Source: Squalus acanthias (Eukaryota). Taken from it: DNA of 64,000 nucleotides. The translations under genes and the position numbers were made by a program. The DNA is taken from contig CM059432.1 in NCBI GenBank assembly GCA_030390025.1, positions 21,888,001 to 21,952,000 of the forward strand, written 5' to 3'. Below, one piece after another: positions 12,098 to 64,000 of this stretch. Position 1 is the stretch's first letter. Every line of letters starts with the position of its first letter. The notes below the pieces were generated by a model. It saw only the letters and a program-made list of their open reading frames with translations, did not search any database and was not told where the DNA came from.

Positions 12098-13834
12098 GCC
12101 TCAGCCTTTCATTTCTTGATTCTGCTGGTGTCTGAATGTGGCAAGGCCATAATGAGTGTTTCCAAACCGAATGCTGCTCTACGCTTCAAAGAGGACTCCC
12201 TCCAAGCTCTTGTGGAGGGAGTAAGAGGGCGCAGGGAGATTCTGTTCCCTCCCGATAGCCAGAGGAAGCCTCCTCAGCAAACCAAGGCAGCCTGGCTGCA
12301 CATTACTGAGGAGGTCAGCGCAAGGTCCTTGTGTTCACCCAACTGGATCCAGTGCCGGTAATGTTTAATGATCTTCTGCGATCAGCAAAAGTGAGTATCA
12401 CATCACACTTACCTTCAATCTGCTTCCCTTCTCTTCTCATCACCAGCACTCTGCTTTGTAAGCCTGCTCCTCCACATCCCACCTTACCCTTACTTCCCTT
12501 GCACCCTAACCTATCCATCTCTCTCTCTGACCTGAATCACCTCACCATCCTGCTATGCAGCCCTCACACTCGCTCTCACTGTTATGCAATAACACCAACT
12601 AAGAACGCACAGGGAGCTAGCTTCCTCTTGGCACCTCACTCCATCTTTGTCTCCCTCTAACCTTCAATGTTATGGATTCTTCACAGTCACTCCATCACTC
12701 TTGCTGAAACTTCACTTGTGTCCCTCCTTGCAGGAAAAGATAGCCCACAATAAGAGGGAAAAAGCAAAGACAGGAGGAGGCACAACATCCCTCGCTACAT
12801 TGACAAGTGCTGAGGAGGCTGCACACGAGATCATTGGAGGTGGTGAGGAGCTGGAAGTGGGGATGGAGAGACGGGCACACTTGACGAAGCTGGTGACAAA
12901 ATAGAGTTTCATCCCTCTCATTTAGATTTCATGATTGACTGCAATGGCATATGATGTTCATCGAGATTCACTTTGTATCATCTGCAGAAAAGGATGTGTC
13001 TGCTACCTAAAATACAGATGTCTAACTCATGCCTTTACTCTCCCACAGGGCCATTGAGCACCCCCGTCCCCACTGTCCAGGAGGAAGAGCCGGATGACTC
13101 CTCAGAGGAACCTGCAGCCTCCGAGAGAGCAGAGTCACCATTACTCAGCACACCCAGCACCAGCGCAGATACGCACACCTTGGTGGGGCCTTCGCGACAC
13201 AGAGTAGTGTTGTCACCTGGTGTATTACAGCTCACAAGTGAGCGACAGCAGTGGAGAGTCCTCGTCGGAGGTCACAGGACTCTGCCAGCTGTGCTCAGCT
13301 GCATGCAGACACTTTTGCCAGGCCGAAGGAGGCGTGATTGGAGGCGTGTGAGGTGTTAAAATCGCAAAAAATGGCGGGCGGCTCTGATCCCGCTTCCATC
13401 CCGCCTCCGAGCAATTTTCCCACATTCGTGGTTTCAGACCCCGTTTCCATCCCGCCTCCAAGAGGCGGAATAGGCCCTTAAGGCCCTTAACAACCACTTA
13501 ATTGCCTCTATAATCCCATTTTGAGAGGCCTTTCTGATTTTAACACATTTCCCCCATCCTACACGCCTCCTCTGGAACACGGCAGTTAATCCTGGCGGCC
13601 TCATAAGTGCATTGCTTACTAACAGCTGCAGCTCCACCATTAAAAAGCAGTTTTCACCAATGATCACTTGCAGATGACAGAACTTTGTTGTCTCAGGTCT
13701 GGGGGAGCTATTAGCAGGCATACTCATTGTTGTGGAAGTTTGGAGCCTGACACCCATCTCCAGTGTGACCTTCTGGGAAACCCCTCTCCCCAACTTGACT
13801 GAGCGCTTCCTCAACTGAGGCATATGCCAGAAGC

Positions 13835-14062
13835 ATGGCGACCATTTGTTTCCTTTCCTCCTGGACATCAGATTCCGTACGAAGACCAGCCGTGGCGGCA
13901 GCAGAACCATGAACAACAGCACCACCAACAGCAGCAGCAACAACAGGAGCGCCAAGCTGCTGCTCACCCACCTGAAGCTTCACAGGCCAGAAGGCGCCAG
14001 CGCGTGGCCACAGTGCTGCCCGGGATGCAAGGGACACCCTCATGTTGGCCAGATTTGCTTAG
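13835..14062 (+). pseudogene. Harbinger transposase reduced to N-terminal Q-rich leader plus last ~18 codons
   Basis: MATICFLSSWTSD... matches the start of 18800(-), and ...RDTLMLARFA* matches the end of 17572(-). No DDE domain between them. Confidence 0.85.
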
Positions 14063-14320
14063 CCTGCACAATCAAACACTTTTGCCTCGCACCTTCTTAT
14101 CAGAGCATCGACAATGGACAAGAACCTGTGGATTCCTATCACTCTGACCACCATACTGACAATTGCAAGTCGCTCTAAGCCCTCAATGTGGAAGTTCCAC
14201 TTGCAAAATGACACAGGCCACAACTTCAACAGTTTGCCATCAGAAATTTTTATCACAACAAGCAACTGATGGCATTTCAAAAATAAACACAACATAACAC
14301 CCAAGTGACTACCCTTGTGA

Positions 14321-16262
14321 CTACTTGTGCATTATCTTCCTCTTATGCGTGCTCCTACGTGGTGCTTCCCCTATGGCTTCAGCAGATGTGGAGGCCCCTT
14401 GCTCACTTTCTTGCTGCTCCTGTCTCGACACCTTTGGCGGCCGTCCTCTGGGGTTGCGAACCTGTGGGGGCTCGGCAACAGTCTGCTGCTCCTGCGGCTG
14501 TGAAGGGGATGAGGAGCCTATCTCAGTTGGGTGAGGACTCTGGTGGGGCTCTGACCGAGGGCTTTGCAGTGGCATGGTCATGTGAGCGCTTGGAGAGGAG
14601 CCTCCACTTCCTTGTTGTCTGCCACCAACATCCCTCTCATGGGTCAGCCCCACTTCAGAGCTAGCAAGTGTCTTGACAGCACCTTGCTGCACTTCAGGGG
14701 GGCCATGAGGACCCGTTTCTGCACTGGAAGTCCTACTCCAGTGAACTTCCATGAAGGTCTGGTTTCTATGCACAATAGCTGACCATCGCTCCTCAAGAGA
14801 TGCCAGTCTATTCTGAACAATGACCATGTTTTCAACATTCTGGCGACTTAGCTCCTCCATGGCCGTAGCCATCCTCTACACTACCATAGCCATCCTTTCC
14901 ACGGAGGTTGCCATCCTTTCCGTGGTGATGCGTTCATGCGCCAATGCCTCCACAAAGGCTCTGCTCATGTTTGCGATGGACTCCTCCATTCGCTCCACAC
15001 TCGCAGCGACCCTGGATACAAAACCTGCCGGAGACTCCTGCACCTGTTCCTGGGGTTCCAGCACCGCTCTCCTTCTGGATGGACCCGGAGGCACAGGGTC
15101 AACATGCAGCTGAGCCGAGCTGGCAGAGTCCTGCGCCCTCCGACGAGGACTCTCCACTGCTGTCCCTCTCTCCACCATCTGCTGATGCTCACTTGTGATC
15201 TGTGATACACCAGGTGACAACACTACTCTATCTCGCGAAGGTCCCAATGAGGTGTGAGTGTCTGCGCTGGTGCTGGGTGCGCTGAATTCTGCTGAGGCTG
15301 CGCCCTCAGAGGTTACAGCTTCCTCTGAGGAGCCTTGAGGCTCAGGCTGTTCCCCCTGGACAGTGGGGACGGGGGCTCTCGATGGTCCTGGGGGGGAGTA
15401 AAGGAAAGAGTTAGAGATGTGAGGTCAAGGTTACATGCACATTGAATTGTACAGATAATCATAAGTCAATCTGTTAAAGCATCAGAATCATTATCAGTGA
15501 CTCATGCAATGTCAATGAGAGAGATGCCAAACTATTCTGTCACCAGCTTGCTGTGATGCGCCCGTCTGTCCGTCTCACACTTGGGAATCGTCCTCGACAC
15601 CGGCAATTTCCAGGGCCGCCTCCTCCCAGGTGGTGAGCTGGGCTACTGAGGGTGGCCCTCCTCCTGTCCTCACTCTTTCCCTCTTATTGTGTGCTCTCTT
15701 TTCCTGCAATGAGGGACACAAGTGGAGCTGGAGTGAGAATGAAGGAGTGAGTGTAGAGAATCCATAGCATAGATGCTTAGAAGGAGACAAAGGACCCTCC
15801 CTGTGTGTTGTAAGTTGTTGTCATTGCATCACAGTGATAGGGAGTGTGAGGGCTTCATGGTCGAATAGTTAAGTGAATGTGACCATAGAGAGAGAGGGAA
15901 TGGGTAAGGGTGCAGGGATGTAAGTGTCAAGTGGGATGTGGAGGAAGAGGTTGGCAAAGCAGAGTGCTGGTGAGGAGAGGCGATGGGGATCAGATTGAGG
16001 ATGATGGGAAGGTCATACTCACTTTTCCTGTGCGGAGAAGGTCATGAAACCTCTTCCTGCACTGCAGCCAGGTTCTGCGGCTCATAGAGATGGAGTTGAC
16101 CCCCTGCGCCACTTGCAGCCACACAGCTTTAGTCTGCTGGGGTGGCTTTTTTCTCCCTGAGGAAGGGAAGAGCACCTCCTTATTGGATCTTGCTCTCTCC
16201 ACCAGAGCTTGGAGGGAGGCCTCATCGAAGCGTGGAGCACACTTTGGCCTACTAGTGTACAT
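14321..16262 (-). pseudogene. Harbinger Myb/SANT-like gene, 3 exons (16262-16023, 15703-15544, 15387-14321), ~488 codons, two premature stops
   Basis: GT-AG introns of phase 0 and 1 give one frame. Stops at 15575 (TGA) and 14876 (TAG); no frameshift seen. Confidence 0.9.
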
Positions 16263-17571
16263 AGTGGATGAATGAAGGGCTTACAACAATGGTCATAAAG
16301 TTTCCAGTCTCCAGAAGAAGCAAGGCTGCTTGCAGGCCTTAAATCCAGCAGCATTGATGACGTCATCAGAGGCGACTTTCTGTATGAAAAGACTCATTGG
16401 GCCAGGGGTTTCCACACGCTGGAAATCAATTGCCCAATTAGGGGAAAATTGCACTTTTTTCCCACTTCACATCAGAGTCGGGGTCCTGACAGGAAAACCA
16501 CCTGACACGCCCCAGCCCGCCCCAATGGCAAAATCGAGCCCTGTGCCTCAGGGGCCATCCAGAAAGAGAGCGGTGCTGGACATCCAGGAACAAGTGCAGA
16601 AGTCTCCGACAGGGTTTGCATCCATGGTAACTGTGAGTATGCAGAGAATGGAGGATTCCATATCTAACATCAGCACTGTCTTTGTGGAGGCAATGGCGGA
16701 TGAACGTTCCGCCATGGAGAGGGTGGCAACCACCATGGAGGACATAAGTCGCCAGACTAATGAAAACATGGTGACTCTTCAAAATAGATTGTCTGCTATT
16801 GAGGAGAGATGGGCATCTATTGAGGAGAGACACCAGAGCTTCATGGACGTCCTTGTTATGAGGACTGACAGTACAGATACGGGTCCTCATGGCCCCACTG
16901 ATGTGCAGTAAGATGCTCTCCAGCCACTTGCTAGCACTAAAGTGTGGCTGACCCATGAGAGGGATGTTGGTGGCAGGCAACAAGGAAGTGTGGGCTCCTC
17001 TCCAAGCGTTCACATGACCATGCCACTGTGGAGCCCTCGGTCAGAGACCCACATTCCACACCCAACTGAAATGGCTGTTTCAGCCCCTGCACAGCCACAG
17101 GAAGAGCAGACTGTTGCAGAGCCCTCCCAGGCTCCCAAACCCAGAGGACACCCACCAAAGGTGCCTAAGCAGGCACAGCAGCAAAGTGAGCAAGGTGCCT
17201 CTACATCTGCTGAAGCCACAGAGGAAGAACCACGTAGAAGCATGCGTAAGAGGAAGATAAAGCACAAATAGTCATAAGGGGAGTCACTTGGGTGTTTTGT
17301 TCTGTTGTCTTTTGTTCTGTTTAATCTATGCCATTGTCATCCTTTTGTGAATGTATTAAACAAAAGTGATGGCAAACAGTTGAAGTTCTGGCCTATGTGT
17401 TCTGAGAAATGGAAGTTGCACATTGAGGGCTCAGGGCGACTTGCATTTGTAATGATGATGGTGAAAGTGATAGGAAAGCACCGTCTATTGCAGAGATGAT
17501 GTATGGTGTTTTAGAATGGTCGTCCACACATTCATAGCCATATGCTAGCCACCTGTGGTTGAAGACTAAGC

Positions 17572-18800
17572 TTACGCGAATCTGGCATGGATGAGTGCAT
17601 CCCTTGTGTGATGGCCAACAATGAGCTCGAGGGCTGCTGCATTGGTCACATCTGGACCCGCAAAGGGCGCCTCCTCCGCGTCCTCCTCCTCTTCTTCCGA
17701 GGATGCTCTGCGCTGAGCCACTTGTTCCTCAGGGAGTGCGAAGCCATGCTGCTGTGCGATGTTGTGCAGGGCACAGTAAATGATGATCATTCTGGACACC
17801 GTGGCTGGTGCATACTGCAGGGCTCCACCAGATCAGTCGAGGTATCCAAATCGCTTTTTGAGAAACCCGATGGTTTGCTCTATGATGCTTCTGGTGGAAA
17901 TGTGGCTCACATTGTACCGCTCCTCAGCCTCGTTTGATGGCCTCCTCATCGGTGTCATGAGCCACTTTTTCAGGGGATAACCCTTGTCGCCAAGTAGCCA
18001 TCCAGAAGTTGGGTTGGCGGATTGAAGAGCTGAGGCACAGTAGACTGCCAGAGGATGAAAGATTCATGGCAACTACCAGGATACTTGGCGCAAACATGCT
18101 TGATGATGTTCCTGTGGTTACACACCAGCTGGACGTGAAGCGAGTGGAAGCCCTTGCAGCTGACAAATACAGCTGGGTTGTGATGGGGTGCCCTAATGGC
18201 CACATGTATGCAGTCTACGATGCCTTGCACCCTTGGGAAGCCTGCCACATTTGCAAAGCCAACCGCACGCGCGGTTACACTTGCTTCATCCATGGAGAAG
18301 TAGATGTAATTGTGCGCCTTTGCAAAGAGGGCATCGGTGACCTGCGGGATGCACGCATGTACGGCCGACTGGGAGATGCCGCTGATGTCTGCAGATGATC
18401 CCTGGAAGGAGCCCGAAGCAAAGAAGTTGAGTGCGGTGGTGACTTTGACAGCCACTGGTAAGGAGTGTCCACATGCTCCTCTGGGCTCCAGGTGTTGGTG
18501 CAGCATTGTGCAGATGTCAGCGACTACCTCTCACGGAAGTCTCAGCCTCCTTTGACACTGCTGCTCAGTCATGTTGAGGAAGCTCATCCTCTGCCTGTAA
18601 ACCTGCCTGTTGGGGGTATCTCCTGCGGCGAGGTGCAGGCCTGCGCTGATGACCCTCTGCCCTGTACAGCAACAGGAGGCTGAGGAGAAGGTTGGCGCTC
18701 CTGCTGTTGGTGCTGCTGCTGTGCCTGGTTGCGCTGATGCCGCAGGCTGCTGTTCCTCCGAATCTGACGACCAGGATGAGAGGATATAAATGGTTCCCAT
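17572..18800 (-). pseudogene. PIF/Harbinger DDE transposase, frameshifted
   Basis: [66 protein letters not shown], acidic tail, ARFA*. Confidence 0.93.
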
Positions 18801-19464
18801 ACCGCTGGTATATATCTCAGTGGAGGAATGGAGGTTGTGTGCGCTCAGACAAAGTGGTCAGAGGGTCTTCACACATCAGATGGATTTCAGACTCAGCACT
18901 CTCAAGATTAGTTGAGCTGCAAAATGTCTCCCAAACCTCAAGTGGCATGTGAAAGAATGAGAGATTGCAGGACCACTTTTTAGCTGCTCGAGCAGCTGGC
19001 AACAATTCAGGTCCTAGCTCAACCCAGCTCGATTCACCTGACGTGTTTTTAAGAAGGCATGTTGAAAAACCTCCAAAATCAGATCAGCCCTTTAAAATAG
19101 GATCATCTCGGCAGTTAACGACCTGTTAACTGCCTTAACAATCTGTTCCGCTGTTTGGTGTCGGGCCAGTTTGGGAGTGGCTGACCCGACACTTCCCAAA
19201 GTCGTGTGAAAGGGGGACACTTCCCAAAGTCGGGTTTGCAGCCCACCCCAAATTTCTACGATTTTCGCAACAGACCCGCCTCCAAAGCCGCCCCCTCAGC
19301 ACAATTACATTTGCGGCCATATTTAGCTATGAGGCTGAGAAAGAGAGACCTTGAGAAGCAGGAAAAAGGCAAGGGGGAACTGAGACTGATATCTTAATGT
19401 CACAAGCCCAGGAGAAGGAATCCAATAGCACAACATTTAAAGATGGATTTTAGTGGTAGATTTT

Positions 19465-21934: not shown

Positions 21935-22077
21935 AAGGCTAAGGGGATCAAGGGACATGGGGAGAAAGTAGGGACAGGGTACTGAATTTGGATGATCAGC
22001 CATGATCGCATTGAATGGCGGAGCAGGCTCAAGGGGCCGAATGGCCTACTCCTGCTCCTATCTTCTATGTTTCTATG
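21935..22077 (+). mobile_element. CR1 3' end
   Basis: gatcagccatgatcgcattgaatggcggagcaggctcaaggggccgaatggcctactcctgctcc plus (TTCTATG)n tail. Confidence 0.85.
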
Positions 22078-22433
22078 GGGGAAAAATTAGGTCGCGCCCC
22101 GTTTGGGGCGCAAATATCGTCTGGACGCAAAAATTAGCGCCTGGCGCTAATTATCGCCACTGACTGGAAACTTCACTTTTACCGCCCCGAGAGGTGAGTG
22201 GAGCGCTAAATCAGGCGCTGCACACCTGTCTTAAGGCGCAAAGGCCGAGCAGTGAGGCGCTAACTCAGCGCGCGAGCGCAGCACAGGTGCTGCCAGTTAG
22301 CGAGGGAACACAGACACACTGGCGCCGGCCAGTTCTTAAAGGGGGGGGCCAACTTGCTCCCCAGCCACACCCTGCTCATTGCAGCCTTGAATCTCGGCCT
22401 GGAGAGACCTGTGAATCCATTTTGCTGCCAAGG

Positions 22434-24253
22434 ATGGAGAGGGTGAGAGAACGAGCTCAGTGCTTCACCGAGCGGGCCTTGGATGCTCTGGTTGGCGCGG
22501 TGGAGCGCAGAAGATCTATACTCTTCCCTGAGAGTGGCAGGAGGCCTTTGCCACGCGAGTACCGAAGACTGTGGAGGGAGGTGGCTCAGAGCGTCTCCTC
22601 CAGGAGCATGGTGCCCAGGACCCATGTTCAATGCCGCAAAAAGTTCAACGACCTCACTCGGGTCGTCAGGGTGAGTGGCTTTTTCTCAATACCTCTCCAT
22701 CCCTCCATCTCAACCTCACTCTATGGCCAGAGGGTCTTAAAACCCCAATGCACAACACTCATCCAACACCTATGGCCCTTTCATGAAACACACACACACA
22801 TTCCACACTTTGCATACAGTAAGGGCTATTCACCTATGGGAGGCACATCAGGCAAGACCATGGCTGCATACAGTAAGGGCTATTCACCTATGGGAGGCAC
22901 ATCAGGCAAGACCATGGCTGTATATTTACTCAGATGCTGTCCTTTTTCTTGCAGGCCAAGCTGGCGCATAATAGGAGACAGCAGCAACGGACAGGTGGAG
23001 GGCGGCCTCAGCTGCAACCCCTCAGCGATCTTGAGGAGCGCGTCCACAGGATTGTGGCAAGCCGGGTGATCGGTCCCGTCGCCACTGGAGACGCCGACCC
23101 CGTTCTGGACAGCAATGGTAAGGTCATCACCTTTTTGTCCTCTGTCCTTCCACTTGTCCCTCACAACACCAGCCTTTGACACTTTCAATCCAACTTGCTA
23201 ACTCGCTGCACTTATTCCTCCCTTACTGCCACCCTGTCCTCACGCTAAAGCCACTCTTGTATCTCCCTGCTTTCAGATGGTGATTCACCAGCTGAGGAGA
23301 CGGGCCCTGAAGCTGCCAGTGGGAGTGAAGCTGCAGGCGAGGAGGAAGAGGAAGCTGGAGCATCAGTGCCACCCTCTCCCGAGGAAGCCCATGCCCACAC
23401 TGGGAACACGCCTTCCCTGGAGGGGAGCAGGGCGGAAGAGTCTGATGAGGGTTAAGCTCCAGGACCCAGCGGGCTGCAGCAACGCCATGGGGGTAGGGAA
23501 GAACGGGGGCCTTCTCCCCAGAGGGAGAGTATGCCAGCGACTCCTACTGCAATGGACGCAGAGGAGGAGCGGCTGATCGCAGAAATGAACACCCAGGCAG
23601 TGGGCATGCACACTGAGCTCATGGGTGCAGTGGGAAGGGTGCCCGAATGCACTGAGTCACTGGCAAGGAGTGTGGAGCACTTTGCTGTAGCACAGGCGGA
23701 TGCCACACTAAAGCTTAGTGCTGCAATTCAGTCACTGACTGCCGTGATCCCATCTCTGACTGCTCTCATGCAGACTCAGATTGAGGCCACGCGAGCACTG
23801 TCTGCTGCCAACCTCGATGGTTCATTCACATGTCCCCGGGGCTCTCACTGCGCCGCAGCAGGCCAGCAATCTGTGCTCCAGCAGATTGCTCCGGATGCTG
23901 AAGTGCTGCCCCGTGGGAGTGCCAGTGTGTCGGTCGAGCAGGGAGTTGCTGTCCTCTCTCACGATGACAGCATTCCTGCTGCCAACACTGTCACTTCTCC
24001 ACTGCACTTGCCACCGCCTGTAGGACAGACTGCTGCCGCCCATGCAGAGTTGGTGCAGTCTGCAGCCGGGCCCTCCAGGCCCAGAACTGGTCGAGGCCGT
24101 CCTTCAGGGGCATCTGCAGTGTCAGGGTCTGACAATCAGCAGCCTTCCACCAGCCTTGCTGCAGCCACTGAGGTCCCATTACGGAGGAGCAGTAGGGTTA
24201 GAAGGGGGGAAGTGCGCAAGGGAAGGAGATCACCCTCGAAGGGCAAAAAGTAG
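22434..24253 (+). pseudogene. Harbinger Myb/SANT-like gene, 3 exons (22434-22670, 22955-23117, 23277-24253), ~458 codons, one premature TAA at 23453
   Basis: F.E..LD.LV..VE.RR..LFP...W.EVA..V.......QCRKKFNDL. Canonical gtgagt/ttgcag and gtaagg/tttcag sites join in frame. Confidence 0.92.
22811..22918. repeat. Perfect 2 x 54-bp tandem duplication in Myb intron 1
   Basis: tgcatacagtaagggctattcacctatgggaggcacatcaggcaagaccatggc at 22811 and 22865. Confidence 0.97.
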
Positions 24254-24565
24254 GAGGTGTGACAAAATGCTGGTCATTTTTTTATTAAAGGCCGAGGTTC
24301 GTGGTCCAACTTTTGTCTAGTGTTTTGGACATTATCTCCAGGTTGTGAGAACCAGTTATGTTAATGACTGTTTTTTTGTGTTTATTTCTATGAGTTTGTC
24401 ATGAGGAAATGACACACACAGAGTTTGCAAAATAAATAAGTCTTTGTATTCAAAATATACATGTTTGGTGTTTGGAATCATTGGTGCCTTGGCCGGCTTA
24501 GGGGTTGCGTGCTGGGTTCATTGATGTTGTTAGCAATGGCAGAAGCCATTTCCACAGCAGGGGCC

Positions 24566-25654
24566 CTAGAAGCGGCTTGCTATCAGCCGTTGACGGACGG
24601 CCCTTGCAGTTTCACCATTGTGGGACGCCCTCCCGCCTTGGTGCTGCTGATGATCATCCTCCTCGTCCTCTTCCTCCTCTTCCTCCTCCTCCTCTGGTGG
24701 TGCTCCAAGGCCTGGTGGCATTGGCTGGGTCCTGACGATTGCCATGTTATGCAACATGCAGCACACAACTACGAAGTTGGATACTCGCTCAGGCGAGTAC
24801 TGCAGGGCTCCTCCAGAATGGTCGAGACAGCGGAACCGTTGCTTCAGCACGCTGATTGTGCGCTCAATGATGTTCCTGGTAGCTTGATGGCTCTCATTGT
24901 ACCGCAGCTCAGCAGGGGTGTTGGGCGTACGGAGCGGTGTCATCAGCCAGGTGCTCAATGGATACCCCTTGTCCCCGAGAAGCCAACCAACTGGCTGATG
25001 CGGTGCCTCGAAAAGTTCTGCCACAGTTGTCTGGCGCAGGATGAAAGCATCGTGGCAGCTGCCAGGATAGTGGGCGTTGACAGCGAGTATCAGCTGTCTG
25101 TGGTCACAGACCAACTGAACATTCAAGGAATGGAACCCCTTTCTGTTCCGGAAATCCTCGGCATTCTCATGTGGAGCACGCAAAGCCACATGCGTGCAGT
25201 CAATGGCGCCCTGCACCATGGGGAAGCCCGCTATCCTCGCAAAGCCCAGAGCGCGGTCACGCTGCTTGTCTAGGGTCATGGGGAAAGAGATGTACTCTCG
25301 TCTCCTTTTAAAGAGGGCATTTGTGACCTGCCGGATGCAGCAATGCACCGCAAACTGGGAGATATTGGCGAGGTCCCCAGCAGCAGCTTGAAATGAGCCA
25401 GTAGCATAGAAGTTGAGAGCCACTGTGACCTTCACTGCCACTGACAGAGACGTCCTGGACCTCAGTTGAGGCTGCAGATCTGGCTGCAGCAGGTGGCAGA
25501 GCTCAGTGACCACCTCCTTGCTGAATCGCAGCCTTCGCAAACACAGCTCCTCAGACAAATGAATGTAGGAGAGCTGTTCACGATATACCCTGGGAGGGTA
25601 AGCTCTCCTGTACAGACGCCTGTTGGCCCTCCTCCGTCTGGCCATCATTGCCAC
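24566..25654 (-). CDS. PIF/Harbinger DDE transposase (HARBI1-family nuclease), ~360 aa open ORF
   Basis: HTH region, GAIDCTHV (D), NRKGFHSLNVQLVCD, YPGSCHD, LLGDKGY (D), IIERTISVLKQRF (E), CCMLHN. An upstream ATG at 25724 is out of frame by one base. Confidence 0.93.
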   Translation of the reverse strand: MAMMARRRRANRRLYRRAYPPRVYREQLSYIHLSEELCLRRLRFSKEVVTELCHLLQPDLQPQLRSRTSLSVAVKVTVALNFYATGSFQAAAGDLANISQFAVHCCIRQVTNALFKRRREYISFPMTLDKQRDRALGFARIAGFPMVQGAIDCTHVALRAPHENAEDFRNRKGFHSLNVQLVCDHRQLILAVNAHYPGSCHDAFILRQTTVAELFEAPHQPVGWLLGDKGYPLSTWLMTPLRTPNTPAELRYNESHQATRNIIERTISVLKQRFRCLDHSGGALQYSPERVSNFVVVCCMLHNMAIVRTQPMPPGLGAPPEEEEEEEEEDEEDDHQQHQGGRASHNGETARAVRQRLIASRF

Positions 25655-27654
25655 TCTCTCTGCATCTCTGTGTCCTCCGATTCAGCTGGAGCAGGACGAC
25701 GCCCCCATTCAGTGCAGCCCCCATAGTCTCTTTGCAAGCAAAGTTATGAAGGACAGCAACCAAAGTACCAGCGAAGTTAGGATCAGTAGGCAAAACTACC
25801 TCACAAAACGTTGACTCAATGCAGAAGTCTCTCTTTCTCTCTCTCCGAATCTCTCTCTCTCTCTCAGAACGAGTGGTGCAAAAATGTCAACCACAGAAAA
25901 AGACAGGAAGAGGCCCCCTTTAAATAGCGCCCCCCCCAGCCCCACAGTGATTGATAGCGTTCCAGTGTTCCGGTCGTTGGATGCGCCAGGCGGTAAGGCA
26001 GGGGGCGCCACTCAATTTCCGCTCCGGGGCGCCACAAGGGCGTTGCACCATGGAATGACGTCACAATCTGCGCGCGCAGGTGGTCGTAGCGGTAAAGTTT
26101 AGCGCCGCCGCACAATGTCTAGTTAAGTTCCCGAGCGGCGCAAACATCACTGCGCCCGGGCGCTAGCGGCTTTGTGCCCCATTAGCGCCCTCTTAAGGCG
26201 CTAACGGGAGGCGCAACCAACTGAATTTTCCCCCCCAAGTTTCTTACTGCTTGGAAGCAATCATTTTTTCTTTTTCATCATAAGTGATCTTTTAGCAAAC
26301 ATTGACGTATGTTAGAGAAGCAATAGCCTACACTTGTTTTCCATGAATTTTTGTATTTTAATTTGCCCCCAGTGAAAATAAGGGAAAAAAGTGGTGGGAT
26401 AATTCATATTTTCGCTCTTTGTATTCAGAGACAGCATTGAGCAATTCTTTGCAAAATGGAGCACATGGTAGATGCATTGGAGAATTACACTTTCACTGTC
26501 CCTCAACTGTGGATTTCAGCTTATAGATGTAGAAGTCCTATTTTGCCAATGTACATTTCTTTTTCTTTCTATTTCGCCAAATACGATGTCTGATTTAAGA
26601 TCCGATTTCAATCCTGATGAGAATGGGAGTTAAAATGGAGGCAGCGTCCTTCCCTATGGAAACATGTCACACTCATGCCCACCGCTATTTTAACAGCAGT
26701 TGGGGTCCGATAATGTAATTCGGACCCCAACAAGAATTTAACCGGCAGATGCATGTTTGGCATTGAACGTGTGCCTTGCCAGGGAAACCAGGTGCCAAGG
26801 AGCAGGCCCAAAAGACGGCCCAGTAGATGAGGTTCGTTAATGGTTTTCTTGCAAGCCAGGAAGAGCAGAGGTGCTCCTCCGAGGTCCAAAAAGGAAATCT
26901 AGGGGTCCTCCCCTGTCCCGGACTTTCCCATCTGCGATCATCTGCACCCCCAATTCTTACCAGAATGCCGAAGACCATGCTAGAGGATCCCTGTCAGCGG
27001 CCTCCTGCTGCCATAAATCCTGCTCCCGCCCACCATCCAAGCATTGATTCCCTCTGCTGTGACTAGGATGTTTCTGAAGAAACTTGCAGCATAACACATG
27101 CACATCTCAGCATGATGCCACCGGAGTTTAGCTGATTCAGCTTTCATTGGGAAGAGGACCCTCCATCAACCAATTCCTCCAAACTGAGGCACTGCAGGTG
27201 TGGGTGCAGATGAGAAGGCAAAGAGCACCACTCGGGCAGCTCGATCTGCCTGGCATCCTTCCGCTGGCCCCCCTTTCCTCCGAACACAGCAGCTCGAAGT
27301 ATTCCTGGTGGAAAACCTTCTGGTACTAATAAAAGGGAGCTTGTAAATGCCTAAGTGCCAGTTGGTTAAAAAAAAAAGCAAAACAAAAGTACAAGAGGGG
27401 CCTTTAAAAGGCCGAATGCACTTACCTTTAAAATCCGTGGAAGAACCTGGTAAGCTTCAGGAAGTGGAGCCTGCAAGTCTGCACCAGACTTCCATCCTGC
27501 CAGGTTTTCATGGGTGATGTACAGTTGATGTACAGTTTTCTTTCCCTTAAGGCTACCCACCCCTTTAAGATGTTGCAGGCATCTGTGATGGTGGCCCTGC
27601 TAGACATTTCCAGAATGTTTTGGTTTTTCAATCATGTTTAATGCGAAAAACATT

Positions 27655-41884: not shown

Positions 41885-42475
41885 AATACTCCATGTGTCG
41901 CTGAACCAGTGTTTTATAAAGGTTCATCATAACTTCCTTTGCTTTTGTACTCCGTGGGCTCGATTTTGCCAGGCCCAAGGATGCGGGATTGGAAGCGTGT
42001 GAGGTGTTAAAATCATGAAAAATGGCGGGCGGGCCCGATCCCGCCTCCATGCAATTTTCCCAAATGCGAGTTTTCTGACCCCATCTCCATCCCGCCTCCA
42101 AGAGGCGGGATAGACCCTTAAGGCCCTTAACAACCAGTTAAGTGCCTCTATAATCCCATTTTGAGAGGCCTTTCTGATTTTAACACTTTTCCCACGTGGT
42201 TCACGTCTCCTCTGAAACACGCCAGTGAAACCTGGTGGCAGCACAAGTGGAATGCTTACTGAACAGCTGCAGCTCCACCACTAAAAAGGAGTTTTCAGCA
42301 ATCATCATTTGCAGGTGGCAGAACTTTGTTGTCTCAGGTCTGGGGGAACTTTTAGCAGGTATACCTATTGTTGTGGAAGTTTGGAGCCTGACACCCATCT
42401 CCAGTGTGACCTCCTGGGAAACCCCTCTCCCCACCTTGACTGAGCGCTTCCTCAACTGAGGTATATACCAGAAGC

Positions 42476-42702
42476 ATGGGAACCATTTATTTCCTTTCCT
42501 CCTGGACATCAGATTCGGACGAAGACCAGCCGTGGCAGCAACAGATCCATGAACAACAGCAGCACCAACAGCAGCAGCAACAACAGGAGCGCCAAGCTGC
42601 TGCTCACCCACCTGAAGCTGCACAGGCCAGAAGACGCCAGCGCGCGACCACATTGCTGCCCGGGATGCAAGGGACGCACTCCTCTTGGCCAGATTTGCTT
42701 AG
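42476..42702 (+). pseudogene. Internally deleted Harbinger transposase (Q-rich N-terminus joined to RDALLLARFA* end, out of frame)
   Basis: MGTIYFLSSWTSDSDEDQ... vs MGTIYILSSWSSDSEEQQ at 18800(-); same junction as 13835-14062. Confidence 0.87.
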
Positions 42703-43817
42703 CCTGCACAATCAAACACGTTTGCCTCGCACCTTCTTATCAGACCATCGACAATGACCAAGAACCTGCGGATTCCTATCACTCTGACCACCATACTGAC
42801 AATTGCAAGTCATCCTAAGCCCTCAGTGTGGATGTCCCATTAGCGATATGACAGACGCCACAACTGCAGCAGTTGCCATCAGAATTTTTTATTTACAATA
42901 ATCAACTGATGGCTTTTCAACATTAAACATGACATTTCACCCAAGTGATTACCCTTGTGACTACTTGTGCATTATCTTCCTCTTACGCGTGCTCCTACGT
43001 GGTGCTTCCCCTGTGGCTTCAGCAGATGTGGAGGTCCCTTGCTCACTTTCTTGCTGCTCCTGTCTCAACACCTTTGGCAGGCGTCCTCTGGGGTTGCGAG
43101 CCTGTGAGGGCTCGGCAACAGTCTGCTGCTCCTGCGGCTGTGCAGGGGCTGAGACGCCGATCTCAGTTTGGTGAGGACTCTGGTGGGGCTCTGACCAAGG
43201 ACTTTGCAGTGGCATGGCCGTGTGAGCGCTTGGAGAGGAGCCCCCACTTCCTTGTTGTCTGCCACCAACATCCCTCTCATGGGTCAGCCCCACTTCAGAG
43301 CTAGCAAGTGGCTTGACAGTACCTTGCTGCACTTCATGGGGGACATGAGGACCCATTTCTGTACTGGAAGTCCTACTCCCGAGGACTTGCCTGAAGGTCT
43401 GGTTTGTTTGCTCAATAGCTGACCATCGCTCCTTAAGAGATGTCAGTCTATTCTGAACAATGACCATGTTTTCCATACCCTGGCGACTAAGCTCCTCGAT
43501 GGACGTAGCCATCCTCTCCTCTACGGTAGCCATCCTTTCCACGGATGTTGCCATCCTTTCCGTGGTGATGCGTTCATGCGCCAATGCCTCCACAATGGCT
43601 CTGCTCATGTTAGCGATGGACTCCTCCATCCGCTCCACACTCGCAGTGACCCTGGAGACAAAACCTGCCAGAGACTCCTGCACCTGTTCCTGGAGTTCCA
43701 GCACCGCTCTTCTTCTGGATGGACCCGGAGGCAGAGGGTCGACATGCAGCTGAGCCGAGCTGGCAGAGTCCTGTGCCCTCCGACGAGGACTCTCCACTGC
43801 TGTCCCTGTCTCCACCA

Positions 43818-45475
43818 TGTAGAGTTTCGCAATTATCGCGATTCAAATAACATGAGAGAAGCAGATTCATTTGATCGGTTTTATTAAACGGAATGCTGTC
43901 CTGATAATAAAGGACACAGAAGCCTGTAAAATGGCCGCCTTGCATCGTGGCAGAAGCTTCCAGAGACACAGTGGGCAGACAAGATGGCGTCGAATATACA
44001 TTCAGTATGAGATCATACTCGGTACACATTGAAAAGACAGGATGCAACCCGTTTGCATTTTGGACAATAGCAATGATATAAGTGCTTGAATCGTTTCATA
44101 CGCACAGTAAGGATCATTGAACTGAGCCATCGAAAACCCATCCAGACACATCAATACACAAATACCCCCCCCCGGCTCAACAATGAGAGAGACATTGGCG
44201 GGTGATTAAGCCAGTATTCGGGGGGCCCCAAAACCAGTCGAGGAGACGATTCAAACCCGCCCTGGCTGGCTCAACAATGGAGAAGGCATTAACGGATAGT
44301 TGGCCAGTTTCGGGTGATACCGAAACCCGTTAAGAAGATAATCGCCCCATGCTGGGAGTTTTGGGCACCAAAATCACACAAAGAATAAACGTTTAGATTT
44401 GAGCGGGAGATAAGGCCGACAAGGCAGTATAACTATAGGGAACAAATGTCCATCGGTCTCTTGACTCTTGGCTCTGGACTCTCCGCTGGTCTCTTCTCTC
44501 GTTCGCTGGTTCCTTCGGCGGGGCTGTGCTGGTCGGTTATTCGAGTGTTGGGTGGGGCTCAATCGGAACGAGCCGCCTCGACAGGGCAGGTAACAGGGTA
44601 CACCATCCCGAGCGTCGGTAAACGGTGTCCGGACCCAGAGGCCCGAGTAACAAGAAGAAACACAAGAAGCAAGACGAGAAGAAATTCCACGTGCCGCCGC
44701 GGTCAGTAAACCCCGACTGCGCCCGAAGATATAACGACAGAATCCATCTTTGAATTCTACAGGCTACTACTGCATGAACCGGTTTCTTTGAATTCTACGG
44801 ACTACTTCATGATCCGGTCTGAACCCATAGACCACTTCATGACATCAGGGAGTCTGGCTTACCCTCCGGCTCTTTGAACGGGTAGCCTGAGCCATCCGCG
44901 CCGAACTTTACCGGGGCCATCTCCAGTGGACCCATTCGCGGCAGCGAAAGTAAACAAGTCGGGGGCAGAAACCCTTACAGCTACGTGACAGCCAGGCGCT
45001 GCAGCGAAAGGAGCTGAGAGCCTCATTTTAAATTTCCGAAGTGAGCCGAGTGGTGAGCATGTTTTCCGATCCTACAAATCCAGACGTAGTTTAGGTATAT
45101 TAAGGGAGGGTGGTTTCTAAGGTTAATGTATAATGTGTTCCCCCTTTTACGATGTGTCGTGTGTTCCCCAGTTCCATAGACCAAGTTTTATGAACGTGTG
45201 TATACTGGTACTCTCTTTAATCTGCGCCTATGACATGTATTTCATGATTTTAGACGCCATGCAATAAAGACATTCATTTTGTGCTATTCAACCAGGTCTA
45301 TTTGAGTCTTTCTCTGCATTACTGCTCCTTGCATCTAAGTCCAGGTGTCAGAACCGTAAGGGCGAGTGGGTCGAACCACTCACAGGTGCTTATTGCAAAA
45401 GTCTGGCCGGAGACCAGAGCAAGCAATAGTATAGGCAACGAAAGCCTCACCTCGCACCAGTCCGTGACCCTTACA
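43818..45475 (+). mobile_element. Solo LTR (1658 bp)
   Basis: TGTA...TACA termini, 4-bp TSD ACCA (43814-43817, 45476-45479), AATAAA at 45263. The empty site is visible in the paralog at ~15175. Confidence 0.92.
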
Positions 45476-46225
45476 ACCATCTGCTGATGCTCACTTGTGA
45501 GCTTTGATACACCAGGTGACAACACTACACTATCTTGCGAAGGTACCACTGAGGTGTGAGTGTCTGCGCTGGTGCTGGGTGCGCTGAATTCTGCTGACGC
45601 TGCGCCCTCAGAGGTTGCAGCTTCCTCTGAGCTGTCTGGAGGCTCAGGCTGTTCCACCTGGATACTGGGGACGGGGGCTTTCGATGATCCTGTGGGGGAG
45701 TAAAGGAAAGAGTCAGAGATGTGAGGCCAAGGTTACATGCACATTGAATATTGCAGATGATCATAAGTCAATCTGTTAGAGCATCAGAATCATTATCAGT
45801 GACTCATGCAATGTCAATGAGAGAGATGAAAAACTATTCTGTCACCAGCTTGCTCTGATGCACCCGTCTGTCCGTCCCCCACTTATGCATCGTCCTCCAC
45901 TCCCATGATCTCCAGGGCCGCCTCCTCCCAGGGGGTGAGCTGGGCTACTGAGGGTGGCCCTCCTCCTATCCTCGCTCTTTCCCTCTTATTGTGAGCTCTC
46001 TTTTCCTGCAATGAGGGAAACAAGTGGAGTTTGAGTGAGAATGAAGGAGTGAGTGTAGAGAATCCATAGCATAGATGCCTAGAAGGAGACAAAAAAGATT
46101 CAGTGAGGTGGCAAGACCAAGGGCCCTCCCTGTGTGTTATAAGTTGTTTTCATAGCATCACAGCGATAGGGAGTGTGAGGGCTGCTTAGTCGAATAGTTA
46201 AGTGAATGTAAACATACAGAGAGAG

Positions 46226-46432
46226 AAAAGTGAGAAGTCGCACAACACCAGGTTATAGTCCAACAGCTTTATTTGAAATCACAAGCTTTCGGAGCGCTGC
46301 TCCTTCACCTGACGAAGGATCAGCGCTCCGAAAGCTTGTGATTTCAAATAAAGCTGCTGGACTATAACCTGGTGTTGTGCGACTTCTCACTTTTGTCCAC
46401 CCCAGTCCAACACCGGCATCTCTGCATCATGG
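46226..46432 (+). mobile_element. 207-bp fold-back Penelope-like mini-element
   Basis: Two opposed PLE termini matching 6810-6929, and a perfect 12-bp TSD ATACAGAGAGAG (46214-46225, 46433-46444). Confidence 0.93.
46305..46341 (+). ncRNA. Minimal type I hammerhead ribozyme motif
   Basis: TCAC-CTGACGA-A-GGATC AGC GCTCC-GAAA-GC-TT-GTGA: stem I TCAC/GTGA, intact core, one mismatch in stem II. Confidence 0.72.
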
Positions 46433-47280
46433 ATACAGAGAGAGGGAATGGGTAAGGGTGCAAGGATGTCAGTGTCAAGTGGGATGTGGAGGAAGAGGTT
46501 GTCAAAGCTGACCGCTGGTGAGGAGAGGCAATGGGATCAGATTGAGGGTGATGGGAAAGTCATACTTACTTTTCCAGTGCGCAGAAAGTCATGAAACCTC
46601 TTCCTGCACTGCAGCCAGGTTCTGCGACACATAGATAAGGAGTTGACCTCCTGGGCCACTTGTATCCACACAGCCTTCGTCTGCTGGGGAGGCTTCTTCC
46701 TCCCTGAAGAAGGGAAGAGCACCTCCTTATTCCCTCTTGCCCCCTCCACCAGAGCTTGCAGGGCGGCGTCATCAAACCTCGGTGCAGACTTAGGTCTACT
46801 GCTGGACATTTTGCCTGGAAGAAACTATCAGAGCAAAGGCCAAAAGGTTTGCAGTCTGCAGAAGAAGCAAGGCTGCGTGCAGGCCTTAAATCCAGCAGCA
46901 TTGATAACGTCATCGGAGGCGAGTTTCAGAATGGAAAGACTAATTGGGCCAGGGGTTCCCACACGCTGGAAATCAATTGCCCAATTAGGGGAAAATCGCA
47001 TATTTTTCCCACATCAAATGGGAGTCGGGTGGCTAACACGAAAAGCGGATGACACGCTCCCAGCCCGCCCCAATGACAAAATCGAGCCCTATGCCTCTAT
47101 TTATGAATTCCAGGATCCCGTATACTTTTTTAACTGTTTTCTCAACCTGCCCTGCCACCTTCAACGATTTGTGTCCATATATCCCCAGGTCTCTCTCTTC
47201 GTGTACCTCCTTTTGGATTGTACCCTTTAATTTATATTGCCTCTCCTTGTACTTCCTACCTAAATATATCACTTTGCACT

Positions 47281-58930: not shown

Positions 58931-61528
58931 TATAATCTCTGAATCGCACAGTAGCAACATCATTAGAGGCCTATTATATAAAGATACAGTAGTTATTGGT
59001 ATTGATGCGCACTGGTTAGACAGAAATCAATTCAGTTAATATCGAACTTCTTGAGCAGAAAAAATTAGTTCTATCTGTCATGTGTAGAGTTGAGTATAAG
59101 ACTTAGCTCATTGTGTAGAACTCTGGGTACAATTGAATGTAATTTAGAATGTATGTCTTCGCTTGCAGGTAGAAGAATAATGATGCCCTTGAAGAGCCCT
59201 ATGATTAAACCTGTAAATTTTCAACCACAAAGTAAAGTGGATGTGCTATCAACTCCCAGCGGCTCCATGGTTTCAAGGCGTCATACACAAAGAAATGAAC
59301 TGGGACCACTCAGAGCTGACGTTACGTCTTTCTACAAAATCCCCTGCCAGTTATTTTATAGCCTCATCAAGTATTTTTATTCATGGAGAATTCAAGAATG
59401 CAAATGCCGTTTGACTGCTTGTCTTCTGCTTTATTGGTTCTGGGCAACAATTAGTGATCCTTAAAGTTATCCAAGGGACATAAAATAGCTTTATTAAAAC
59501 TGATGGAACCAGAAACTGCTGGCCTGCAATGTTTATTTAATACAAATGTTTCAACATTTTTTTTCACCGTACAGCCATCAATATAAAAAGATTCAAGAAT
59601 TAGTATTTTAATTCTAAATGAACTGCAAAGCTAGGTAGCAGCACAGCTCAAACAGATCTTTTTTAGACTCGAATTTCATAAATAATATATTTGAAACATT
59701 GGGGGGAGGTTTTCAGGGGGTCAGCGTTTGGTGGCGGGTCAGTGGGATTTTTTTTTTGACAGCGGGTCAGGAACCTGCTGTCAATCCGCCACCATGAGAC
59801 TTTCCCAGATGTCAGGTCTGTCAACGCTGAACAGACCTGACACGCAGCAGCGGGGGAGGCAATTTAAGTCATTATGAACTTGTTAAGAGCCACTTAAAAA
59901 GTATTTTGAGCTCAGCTTTAAATTTTACGAGGTCGCCCACAGCGTCCCTGCTGCTCGGGGATCACATCAGGAAAGGAGGTCGGGAGTTGTGTTACCATGA
60001 AATCATCTCTTTACTTGACAGCTGCAAATGTGCTATAAAAGCTCCCATCTCACAGCTGTTCACTTTCCAAGCTCAGAAGCTGTTGCTTATTGCATTTGGA
60101 AGACAGATTGAGCTTTATTCAAGTTGCATGTGTTTGGAGTAAACACTCTATCCAGTGTCACCTTATTGGAACAACCTCTCTCACCATTGACAGATCGCTT
60201 CTGTCATCTCAACTTCACCTGCCATCTATTACATCAGCAACGGTGCCCTTGAAACTATCTCGCCTTGGTCCTCAGAATCACACCACGATCAGCAGCACCA
60301 GGCACACCAACAGCAGCAACAACAACACCAACCTTCTCCGCAATCACCTGATGCTGCACAGGACACAGGGCATCAGCACCTAACCGCATTGCTGTCCGGG
60401 AGGCCAGGGATGGCCTCACCATGGCCAGATTTACTTCACTTGACGCTGTACACCCTGGCTGCCACTAGATGTGCCAGGTTGGCACCACCCCACACCAACA
60501 CCATAAAGCATCCCTACAATGCCCAAGCCATTCTTTTCACACTCATCACCATTACAAGGGGTACTGTTATGTCTCACCATACACTGCAACTCACTAAGCC
60601 ACTTCCAAAGGTGCACAGCAATCTGTCCAAGAACGCAAAGTGCTGAAAATAAAGGTTTCAATGTTTGACAGCACAATAACAGAAACTTCACTTGAGCATT
60701 GCATAAAACACCCAAGTGCCGACCCTTGTGTGTTGTTAGTTGGTATGATTGCACTAGGATGAGGATGAGTTTGAGGGGTGGCTAGTGAGATGGGGAAGTG
60801 ATAATGTAGATAGAGAGGGATGGGTGGAGGTGCAAGGTAAGTTGGTGTAAGTAAGGATGTGCAGGAGTAGGGTAGGGAAGGCAGAGTGATGTGGATGTGA
60901 TGAGTGGCACAGCAGGATGAGGTTGAGTGTGGCTTTGCAGTAACGTTTTGTGATCTACTGAGATCAGAGAAACGTTTGCGCCACTGCAGCCTGGTCCTCC
61001 TGACAACATCCCTGCTTGTGCCCTCCTGTGCAATGTGCAACCAGGCTGCGTTGCTTTCCTGGGGCGGTCTCTTCTGCCCATTGGAAGGGAAGAGAACCTC
61101 CCTGCGTGCTGTGGCTCCCTCCATAAGCATATGGAGGGAGTCATGGGAGCGCCTGGGTGCAGTTGTGCAGCTTTGTGCAGTGCTTGTCAGTGTTTGCAGC
61201 ACCTCAATGCTGTAGAACACTGACAGCACAGGGAGAAATTCGGTATCGCCCCGTTTGGGGCGCTAATGATTCTGAGCTTCCCCTAAATTGGCTGTTAGCG
61301 CTCCAGGAGAGAACTGAAACGCTAAATCAAGCACTAATGACCTAAGGAGGGTGCTACAGGGGCGCTGCCAGCAGCGCGATAATGAATTGCAGGTGCTATG
61401 CAATCGGGAATGATCCTTCACACTGGCTCCTTCCAGCTCTTAAAGGGGAGATTACATCATTGTGCAGATCCTCATTATCAGCATTTCTGGCTGTGAAGGC
61501 AACCTGCTAACAACTCAATCCCCTGATC

Positions 61529-63365
61529 GTGTTGGCTGATCCCACTCCCAGGGAGAGAGCTCGTGGTTTCATGGGTGAGACATTGGCCGCGGGAGTGGAG
61601 CGATGGAGGGCAGTGCTGTTTCCGGACACTGGAAGGAGGCCATTGCCCCAGGTCTTCAGGGCAATGTGGAGGGAAGTGGCCCAGGGGGTCTCGGCCAATA
61701 GTGTAGGTGAACGCAGCCTGACACAGCGCCACAAGAAATTCAACGACCTGACTCGGGTGGTCAAGGTGAGTACATGCTTCAACAGGTCTACATACCAGCA
61801 TCTAAACCTCAGTCTGTACACACTGCACAAACCACCACACCCCCACCACTCACCCACCAAGCATCTGCACCTACTCAAACTCACATCCACATCTCACGCC
61901 TTGCCTACATTCACAGCTATTCAACTACGGCAGGCATATCTCCCAAACACATAGCTGGACTCTGACTGAAACACATTTGTTTCTCTTGCAGGCCAAGATG
62001 GCCCACAATAGGAGGGAGCAGCAGAGAACAGGCGGGGATGATGCGCAGCTCCAGCAGCTTTCAGACCTTGAGGAGCGAGTGCTGTGACTCATCGGGTGCC
62101 AGGTGGTGGGCGGCGTGGCCGTCAGCAACGTCGGCCCCTTGGGGTCAACAACGGTATGTTGATCCCCTCTCCTTCTCTCATCCCACTTCCCCCTCACACC
62201 ACAAGCCTTTCCCACTTTCCGGCTCCTGATGCTGTCTGCATTCCTTGTTCCCTTCCTGTCCCCCTGCCCTCACCTTAACGCAAGTCTCGTGCCTTTATGC
62301 ATTCAGAGAATCAGCAACCTGATGACCAGTCTGTCCATGAGCCTCCCACTGAGAGTGAAGAAGGAGAAGAGGAGGAGGAGCAACGCACCGCGTCACTGCA
62401 TCTCTCACCCGCAGGCACCACCTCAGATACTGACACTATGCAATCTTTAGAGGCAACTTTAGTAGAGGGGTCTGCACTGGGTGAGGCACCAGGGAGGAGC
62501 AGGCTGCAGCAAGGACGGAGGGGAAGGGTAGCTCGGGAGCCAGCTCCCTGGAGGGCGAGTTCTGCTGCACAGGACTCAGTTGAAGACCTCGATGGGGAGG
62601 CGTTCACAAGAAGGGTGATAGGCATGCACTCCGAGATGATAGGTGCAATGGCAAGGGTGCCTGAGAGCCTCTTGGCAATGGTAAGGAGCATGGAGGAGTC
62701 CGCCTCCAACATTGCACAGAGCTCTGCGCACACCATGGAGCCCATCATTTCCACTCTGCAGAGGATGGTAGACTCCCAGAGAGACCATGCGGATCCAGAT
62801 CTCATGGGCGATGTGGCAGCTTCCATTGCAGCACAGGCGGAAGTGATGCAATGTCTCATCAGTGCTGCCATGCAGTCAATGGTTGGTGGCATCAAATCTC
62901 AGACTGCTCTCATGCAGATGTCACACAAGCTCTGACTGTTGCCATCATCGCTGGGTCCACCACAGCCCACCGGGGATCTGACGGTGTCGCAGCAGGCCAG
63001 CAATCTGTGCTCCAGCAGATTGGTAGGGATGCTGAGGTGCTGCCCCGGGGGAGTGGGAGTGGGTTAGTGGAGCAGGAACCTGCTGTCCACTCTCAGGATG
63101 ACAGCATTCCTGATCCCATCACTGCCACTCCGCCATTGCACTTGTTGCTGCCTGTCATCCAGCCAGCCCAGACTGCTGCTGCCCTTCCTGAGGTGGCGCA
63201 GTGTACAGCCAGGCCTTCTAGAGCTGGTTGAGGGTGTTGTGCAAGGCCATCTGTAGTCTCTGGCACTGACACTCAGCAGCCTTCCACCAGCCCTGCTGCA
63301 GCCACTGGGGAGACACTACGTAGGAGCAATTGATTAGGAAAAGGCACTGTAAAGAGGGGAAGTAA
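61529..63365 (+). pseudogene. Harbinger Myb/SANT-like gene, 3 exons (~61529-61765, 61992-62153, 62307-~63365), disrupted
   Basis: RERARGF...GVERWR.VLFP.TGRRPLP...WREVAQ.VS...KKFNDLTRVVK|gtgagt; ttgcag|AKMAHNRREQQRTGG; exon 3 homologous to 23277-24253. Confidence 0.88.
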
Positions 63366-63552
63366 GGGTTTGCACAAGGGTAATTAGTTAATATTGTTGT
63401 TGTATACATGTGGTTCCAGAATTTGGATACATTTATTATTGGAATGTTGCAGATTTGGGGCTGTGTCTCATCTCAGCTTTGGGGTGTGGTATGGAATCAG
63501 AAATTGATGGAATGATGGGGACGTGCTGAGCAACCGGGAGGTGGCCTCGAAT

Positions 63553-63852
63553 TCATTGCAACCGAAGTCTGATGAGGCGGCCATGAGGAGAAATGCTGCC
63601 GGAATACCCTGGGAGGGTAAAGCCTCCTGTTGAGAGCCCACAAGGCCAATTGAGTGGCGGCCTCCTCCGTCGCTGCTGTTGGCGCTCCTCCTCCTCCTCC
63701 TCCTCGTCTCCCACTTCCTCCTCCTGAGGTGGTGCAGCTATGCATGATGGCCAAGTTATGGAGCATGCAGCAGACGACGACAACAACCGCTTGGCCGAGT
63801 ACTGGAGGGCTCCTCCCGAGCGGTCAAGGCAGCAGAACCGTTGCTTGTGCAC
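63553..63852 (-). pseudogene. Harbinger transposase C-terminal fragment, rearranged
   Basis: KQRFCCLDRSGGALQYS, VVVCCMLHNLAI, acidic tract, RLIRLR. Confidence 0.85.
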
Positions 63853-64000
63853 CCCGGAGGCGCTAACTTGAGGTGCTAAGGTACCAAATTTCTCCCCCTA
63901 AATTTGCGCATGGTCCCTTTAAGGAAACCGGCTGATGACATGTCATCAAATGACGTCATCAGACCCGCTTCCTTCAATTGGCCGGGAAACGCGCTTGGCG

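Follow-up and report, generated by a model that had tools for sequence, protein, structure and literature searches.

Harbinger transposons need two proteins in order to move: the Myb-like protein binds the ends of the element and partners the transposase (PMC2836001). Zebrafish Harbinger3_DR/Harbinger3N_DR and rice Ping/Pong/mPing are two-protein systems of this kind with trans-moved non-autonomous elements; the Harbinger proteins act in trans to move a reporter that codes for neither of them, and the Ping and Pong subunits cross-complement (PMC2836001). Unlike those zebrafish and rice reporters, which code for neither protein, the elements described here have retained a Myb gene. They lie in a 64,000-nucleotide (nt) stretch of Squalus acanthias (assembly GCA_030390025.1, contig CM059432.1, positions 21,888,001 to 21,952,000; hereafter the window). 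Element A, our main subject, is a transposase-deleted Harbinger copy, and element C is a second copy of the same family. We consider both to be decayed non-autonomous elements moved by the transposase of relatives, and their Myb gene to be probably a passenger rather than a selected helper, a reading that we hold with some reservation.

Two described systems come closest. In the sea krait Harbinger-Snek elements, multi-copy variants that code for nothing but the DNA-binding protein (in L. colubrina, 452 are intact) were ascribed to large deletions, and solo-gene variants occur alongside complete elements and short derivatives that lack coding capacity (PMC8437027). Harbinger-Snek is young and horizontally acquired and its transposase-only variants (2263) outnumber the DNA-binding-only ones, whereas A and C are decayed and mosaic. 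In the nematode C. inopinata, the expanded Harbinger-1M_cIno and Harbinger-2M_cIno elements bear a MADF/Myb gene and lack the DDE gene, which is proposed to act in trans, as in a semi-autonomous model; the authors call this trans supply hypothetical (PMC13668399). These nematode elements are currently active, and their intact genes number 15 for MADF and one for DDE, while the A/C family has far more copies, has undeleted relatives and is known from sequence alone. A teleost survey found no Harbinger with a single open reading frame (PMC9179366), and Myb-bearing Harbingers of the newt were reported with no transposase loss described in the part available (PMC5741667). The architecture is thus already known and A/C is a shark instance of the Myb-only Harbinger derivative; since multi-copy derivatives of this kind have been published (PMC8437027, PMC13668399), the preliminary description of the locus, which took it for a possible undescribed system, goes too far on this point. 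No description of the A/C family itself was found in the literature searched, a search whose scope did not extend to Repbase, Dfam, supplements and most subscription journals. Neither main text shows a selection test: the words "purifying" and "synonymous" are absent from that of PMC8437027 and selection-test terms were not found in that of PMC13668399.

Two independent insertions with a common deletion

A and C run colinear from 13313 to 16549 and from 41964 to 47097, respectively, with 86-91% identity once the two insertions in C are set aside. Their 500-nt flanks give alignment scores of 18 and 18, while shuffled left flanks average 18.9 and reach 29; because the flanks align no better than shuffled sequence, A and C are separate insertions. 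With colinear bodies and a common junction, they bear out the proposal that two independent insertions share one deletion. The right terminal inverted repeat (TIR) of A is complete and the left one lacks its outer 8 nt. Contigs from public runs connect 13310/13311 directly with 16541, which corresponds to the empty site of A. A C(C/A)CGCCTC-type motif, a candidate binding site, has 7 exact matches in the terminal 500 nt of A and 1 in the 2728-nt interior, counts that are descriptive only as the motif was chosen from those same termini. In C, a short insert lies in Myb intron 1 besides the 1658-nt insert with a 4-nt duplication, of which the window holds no second copy.

The deletion junction lies at 14007/14008, and about 1.0 kb of transposase gene is gone in both A and C. 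By comparison with the full-length neighbour B the missing piece measures 1012 nt, in agreement with the roughly 1 kb first estimated. From its ATG at 13835 the glutamine-rich leader runs on into what is left of the end of the gene, 17 codons and the stop (14009-14062). The junction had been placed just after CAGCGC, with about 18 codons retained; the joining of the leader to the last codons of the gene stands, while the exact spot is some 4 nt beyond CAGCGC, 17 codons plus stop remain, and the fusion is out of frame, leaving a chimeric 93-codon stub in C and carrying a private additional base (+1) in A. The position is given by contigs of run X9, 13 of which match A up to 14007 and then run into a RRRRRYPQ-coding stretch; two pieces among those listed start at 14008 and 14010, preceded by unaligned letters. 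As these contigs continue past 14007 into RRRRRYPQ, undeleted relatives exist, seen as short unaligned contig ends in run X9; their likeness is 85% or more. The A/C leader is 77-80% identical to that of B, whose transposase core matches DDE_Tnp_4 (E 3.3e-11), while the DDE core itself is missing from A and C. By these resemblances, its Myb/SANT gene and its short TIRs, A/C classifies as a PIF/Harbinger (PHIS) deletion derivative, descended from an element with a DDE transposase of this type. Pfam detected no helix-turn-helix domain in the intact transposase of element F, another Harbinger of the window, so that the helix-turn-helix counted among the lost parts in the preliminary description is no more than putative.

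The A/C family is very abundant. In runs X1 and X9, 86,149 and 31,362 contigs, respectively, aligned to the stretch, with depths that add up to about 1e5 to 2.5e6 in each bin, compared with about 15-50 for most single pieces listed; this contig depth is not a copy number, includes contigs of related families and is not restricted to junction-spanning copies. Among 24 runs listed, 20 contain the stretch wholly or partly (8 studies, 7 coded organisms plus unlabelled ones) and 12 contain at least half of its words. As anticipated, the locus is therefore no local duplication, given also the unrelated flanks. Harbinger Myb genes have been domesticated elsewhere, NAIF1 being such a gene (PMC5741667), and we asked whether A/C might be a domesticated host gene or a local segmental duplication. 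The presence of TIRs, the unrelated flanks, the stops in both copies and the 86,149 contigs in a single run refute this idea, to which we attach next to no credence.

Because Harbinger transposition requires both proteins (PMC2836001), the transposase must have come from elsewhere. The semi-autonomous lineage envisaged in the preliminary description consequently holds as far as amplification and a nuclease from outside are concerned; use of Myb, or selection on it, after the deletion is no more than a possibility.

The Myb/SANT gene and its lesions

The Myb gene has 488 codons in A and C alike, GT..AG introns and no frameshift, just as first described, and it is predicted to be spliced from three exons. 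Exon 1 matches PF13873 (E 2.2e-10, above the curated cut-off). The PRGRPPK motif of exon 3 in A is, we presume, AT-hook-like. A HMMER search with the SANT domain matched 45 proteins, none of the A/C family, the best being 58% identical; all 8 that were checked for their source are annotated shark or ray proteins. Word-index protein searches with exon 3, and with exon 1 against longer proteins, gave no match. The cartilaginous fish Myb-like protein P0011 (XP_067827223.1, 465 amino acids) has the same layout, with an N-terminal SANT domain, a helical middle and PRGRPP followed by a basic tail. Identity is 45% in the SANT domain and, for the exon-3 piece of C, 35% over 283 amino acids; the protein belongs to another family.

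Neither A nor C as they stand encodes a full-length Myb protein. In A, codons 123 and 304 are stops; in C, codon 121 is one, in addition to the exon-3 and intron-1 inserts; no lesion is common to the two copies, so that the earlier claim of copy-specific lesions was right. The two stops of A are private, as about 99% of the aligned depth in run X1 has another base there (among 40 of 607 variant rows listed), and the Myb frame is open in the family at these two positions. That of C is called private only on the grounds that A is without it. The 5' leader and first codons (16248-16300) are hypervariable, A and C being 35% different, and aligned depth drops from more than 1e5 to 230-1246 at 16278-16282, which indicates that the Myb start region of A is a minority variant among the aligned contigs. 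Two runs guessed to be RNA span 30 of 30 bins; their listed contigs pass the intron borders unspliced and no splice joint occurs among the 15 of 120 joints listed. These contigs are possibly DNA and weigh neither for nor against expression.

Myb divergence: passenger or selected helper

Ratios of non-synonymous to synonymous change (dN/dS) were derived from two copies, A and C, a weak comparison. A whole-gene value of 0.57 (bootstrap 0.39-0.85) was dropped as proof of selection, because it averages segments of differing history. The proportion of non-synonymous differences (pN) is 0.06-0.08 throughout Myb, at the level of the introns. The synonymous proportion (pS) of 0.37 in exon 1 exceeds both that of exon 3 (0.059, p = 6e-9) and that of the introns (0.07, p = 7e-9), the synonymous sites of exon 1 being about 5 times more different than the introns. 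Differences between A and C are clustered along the element, the observed dispersion being reached in 0 of 2000 permutations. Together, the synonymous excess of exon 1, the clustering and the rare start variant point to a separate history for the 5' part of Myb, which is likely recombinant and exchanged between diverged subfamilies. The SANT alleles of A and C diverged under purifying selection, be it in deleted or in autonomous elements.

Toward the junction the gene looks different. In exon 3, the exon nearest to it, 60 non-synonymous differences stand beside 15 synonymous ones, which gives a dN/dS of 1.28 (Fisher p = 0.48). The Myb stops, 3 in two copies, fit neutral decay, for which 1.5-1.9 per copy are expected at 2.5-3.5% decay. 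Myb loss is also tolerated in mobile relatives, namely at least three MITEs (miniature inverted-repeat transposable elements) and element D, which is without exons 2-3. As autonomous relatives supply Myb too, there would be little selection for a copy's own gene. A passenger Myb is what these data favour.

Several observations weigh against it. The dN/dS of 0.17 in exon 1 (p = 8e-7) is a real purifying signal and that of exon 2 (0.27) is purifying as well; both may be older or younger than the deletion. No indel separates A and C in 1467 coding nt, compared with 8 in about 1716 non-coding nt; 4.9-9.2 were expected, a deficit with Poisson p from 0.007 to 1e-4, several of the non-coding indels lying within short runs. 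A neutral exon 3 is expected equally if Myb was a selected helper and most of the A-C divergence arose after insertion. Finally, three deletion types in 64 kb (A/C, D and E) keep at least the SANT exon and a single one (G) keeps the transposase.

The selected helper is the main alternative. Here, junction-bearing master copies would have expressed their own Myb, kept by selection, and received transposase in trans; Myb could be limiting, act preferentially near its own gene or read subfamily-specific subterminal repeats. The marked surplus of synonymous change in the SANT exon, where pN stays at background (0.082), the lack of coding indels and the family frame open at both tested stops all agree with it, as does the situation in C. 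inopinata, where MADF-only copies are expressed and more numerous than DDE copies (PMC13668399). Yet exon 1 has a synonymous divergence far above that of the intron next to it, an excess that cannot result if the copies simply shared one history since the deletion, exon 3 is neutral, D has lost two of three exons, and Harbinger proteins work in trans on Myb-less MITEs (PMC2836001). On balance we regard a selected helper as possible and rather unlikely, at about half the weight given to a passenger gene.

Other Harbinger elements in the window

The window holds nested Harbinger-type elements amid fragments of long and short interspersed nuclear elements (Table 1).

Table 1. Coordinates of elements A and C and of the other Harbinger elements in the window
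Feature	Position	Strand	Remarks
Element A, transposase-deleted, Myb-retaining Harbinger copy	13313..16541	.	Located within Myb exon 3 of B
A left arm	13313..13834	+	Shortened TIR; subterminal repeats of C(C/A)CGCCTC type; 5' part of transposase gene
A transposase stub	13835..14062	+	Out-of-frame fusion of Q-rich leader (13835-14007) with last 17 codons + stop
A Myb exon 3	14321..15387	-	Private stop 14876-14878; PRGRPPK motif
A Myb exon 2	15544..15703	-	Private stop 15575-15577
A Myb exon 1	16023..16262	-	SANT/Myb domain, PF13873
A right TIR, 12 nt	16530..16541	-	
Element B, decayed two-gene Harbinger hosting A	12150..19312		Myb + (12150-13312, 16542-17271); frameshifted transposase - (~17570-18800)
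Element C, same family as A	41956..47089	.	12-nt TIR at both ends; flanks CGT / TAT
TG..CA insert, 1658 nt, solo-LTR-like (LTR, long terminal repeat)	43818..45475	.	ACCA duplication; interrupts Myb exon 3 of C
Element D, distant family	59701..64000		Split by E; extends beyond window end
Element E, Myb-retaining, DDE-less, related to F	61231..63896		Myb exon 3 frameshifted; scrambled transposase remnant
Element F, two-gene Harbinger from a different family, full-length	22077..26236		Transposase open 371 codons; Myb exon 3 with one stop
Element G	47680-50356		Decayed transposase kept, interrupted by another repeat; Myb exons 2-3 lost, most of Myb gone

In element D the transposase gene has a deletion whose register is that of A/C, with a junction at about 60383/60384. 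Of its Myb gene, exon 1 (60945-61160) is still present and open, its donor site being degraded; exons 2-3 are missing. D aligns without gaps with A/C over the junction (28/40 bases on the left, 41-42/54 on the right), and both junctions could in principle go back to one very old deletion, with arms and Myb replaced later by recombination and the stub persisting as a long-lived module. Against a single event, the arms of D are 46-49% different from A/C and those of full-length B 32-42%; SANT pS relative to A/C is 0.65-0.70 for D and 0.53-0.59 for full-length B; and the leader of D is nearer to B (29% different) than to A/C (37-39%). Undeleted relatives at 85% likeness or more also exist, and an independent deletion at weak microhomology offers an alternative. 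We therefore rejected D as proof of an ancient deletion, D being more distant than full-length B, and hold a single old deletion to be very improbable. As D is remoter from A/C than full-length B, a repeat of the deletion in this register, or else a transfer of the junction, is the likely cause. Microhomology as the cause of the junction is weak and no more than a lead: in B the in-register similarity at the breakpoints is 8/16 matches, equalled at 4% of core positions.

Element B resembles A unevenly. In Myb intron 1 (15704-16022 vs 12392-12733) the two are 19-27% different, compared with 27-48% in exons 1-2, and two exon-3 patches differ by just 5-7%; this likeness reflects either inter-family exchange or constraint at the DNA level. 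A 750-nt repeat forms an inverted pair (11349-12097 and 29189-29945, 85% alike), the first of which stands at the expected left end of B.

In E, the transposase remnant (63480-63896) consists of a C-terminal piece (KQRF..MLHN, acidic tail), then the N-terminal motif RRLYPPRVFRQHF, then the last codons, and just about 45 nt are left of the right arm. An internally deleted copy related to F, with a TTT duplication, lies at 53700-54594. G is the reciprocal kind of derivative, and deletion derivatives of every kind are common in the window, which includes at least three MITEs with paired ends. Two MITEs (10590-11333 and 41072-41884) have A-like termini. An isolated, decayed Harbinger transposase core fragment at 4133-4745 has no recognised ends, and a C-rich tandem array of 30-34-nt units occupies 56470-58600.

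Target-site duplications and classification

C is flanked by an imperfect 3-nt pair, and A by TGT on the right, its left copy being deleted. The MITEs have AAT/AAT, AAA/ATA and TTT/TTT, and the flanks of F and E do not match. A clean TWA pair was found in none of the 7 elements examined, most of which are decayed. The perfect AAT pair of MITE 41072-41884 led us to drop a reading of the termini with a 1-nt duplication. The two MITEs with A-like termini and the insertion site of A have in common the left target half-site GACAC, and A and C the right half-site GCCTC, which suggests a longer target preference.

The NuwaI group of the PHIS superfamily has, as here, GGG-starting TIRs, a second gene of Myb/SANT type and animal hosts (PMC4482050). 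Its CWG duplication is not matched by CGT/TAT in C or by TGT on the right of A, and in this GGG register no CWG duplication flanked the GGG..CCC termini in A, in C or in the MITEs. The A/C family fits neither the TWA rule of PIF/Harbinger sensu stricto (Han 2015) nor the NuwaI CWG rule cleanly and is not filed under NuwaI.

Proposed origin of the A/C family and its significance

If Myb was carried rather than selected, the family may have arisen as follows. An internal deletion in one two-gene element would have spared the TIRs, the subterminal repeats and the Myb gene. The deleted form could then have been amplified, since both Harbinger proteins act in trans on elements with proper ends, and its young copies may have fed Myb to the common pool. 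Stretches of the Myb 5' region would later have been swapped with diverged subfamilies, importing the purifying signal of exons 1-2, and each copy would have decayed neutrally after insertion.

A bolder proposal combines the deletion in D with selection on the SANT exon: shark Harbingers would have a hotspot at which one and the same ~1-kb transposase segment is lost again and again, and the Myb-only lineages so formed would persist as selected helpers, swapping SANT exons between subfamilies while leaving the protein nearly unchanged. We consider this doubtful, and more so than a selected helper by itself. If it were true, it would provide the first demonstration of selection on the targeting subunit of a two-protein DNA transposon in elements that lack the nuclease. 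Should Myb prove a passenger, A and C amount to ordinary repeat annotation. Two points nonetheless merit further work: when the SANT exon was under selection, and the deletion that D has in the register of A/C. If divergent families lost the same stretch more than once, this would suggest that non-autonomous elements originate by a defined route, and an abundant, old and subfamily-rich family with a diagnostic junction allows one to ask whether the DNA-binding gene of such elements is selected or simply carried along.

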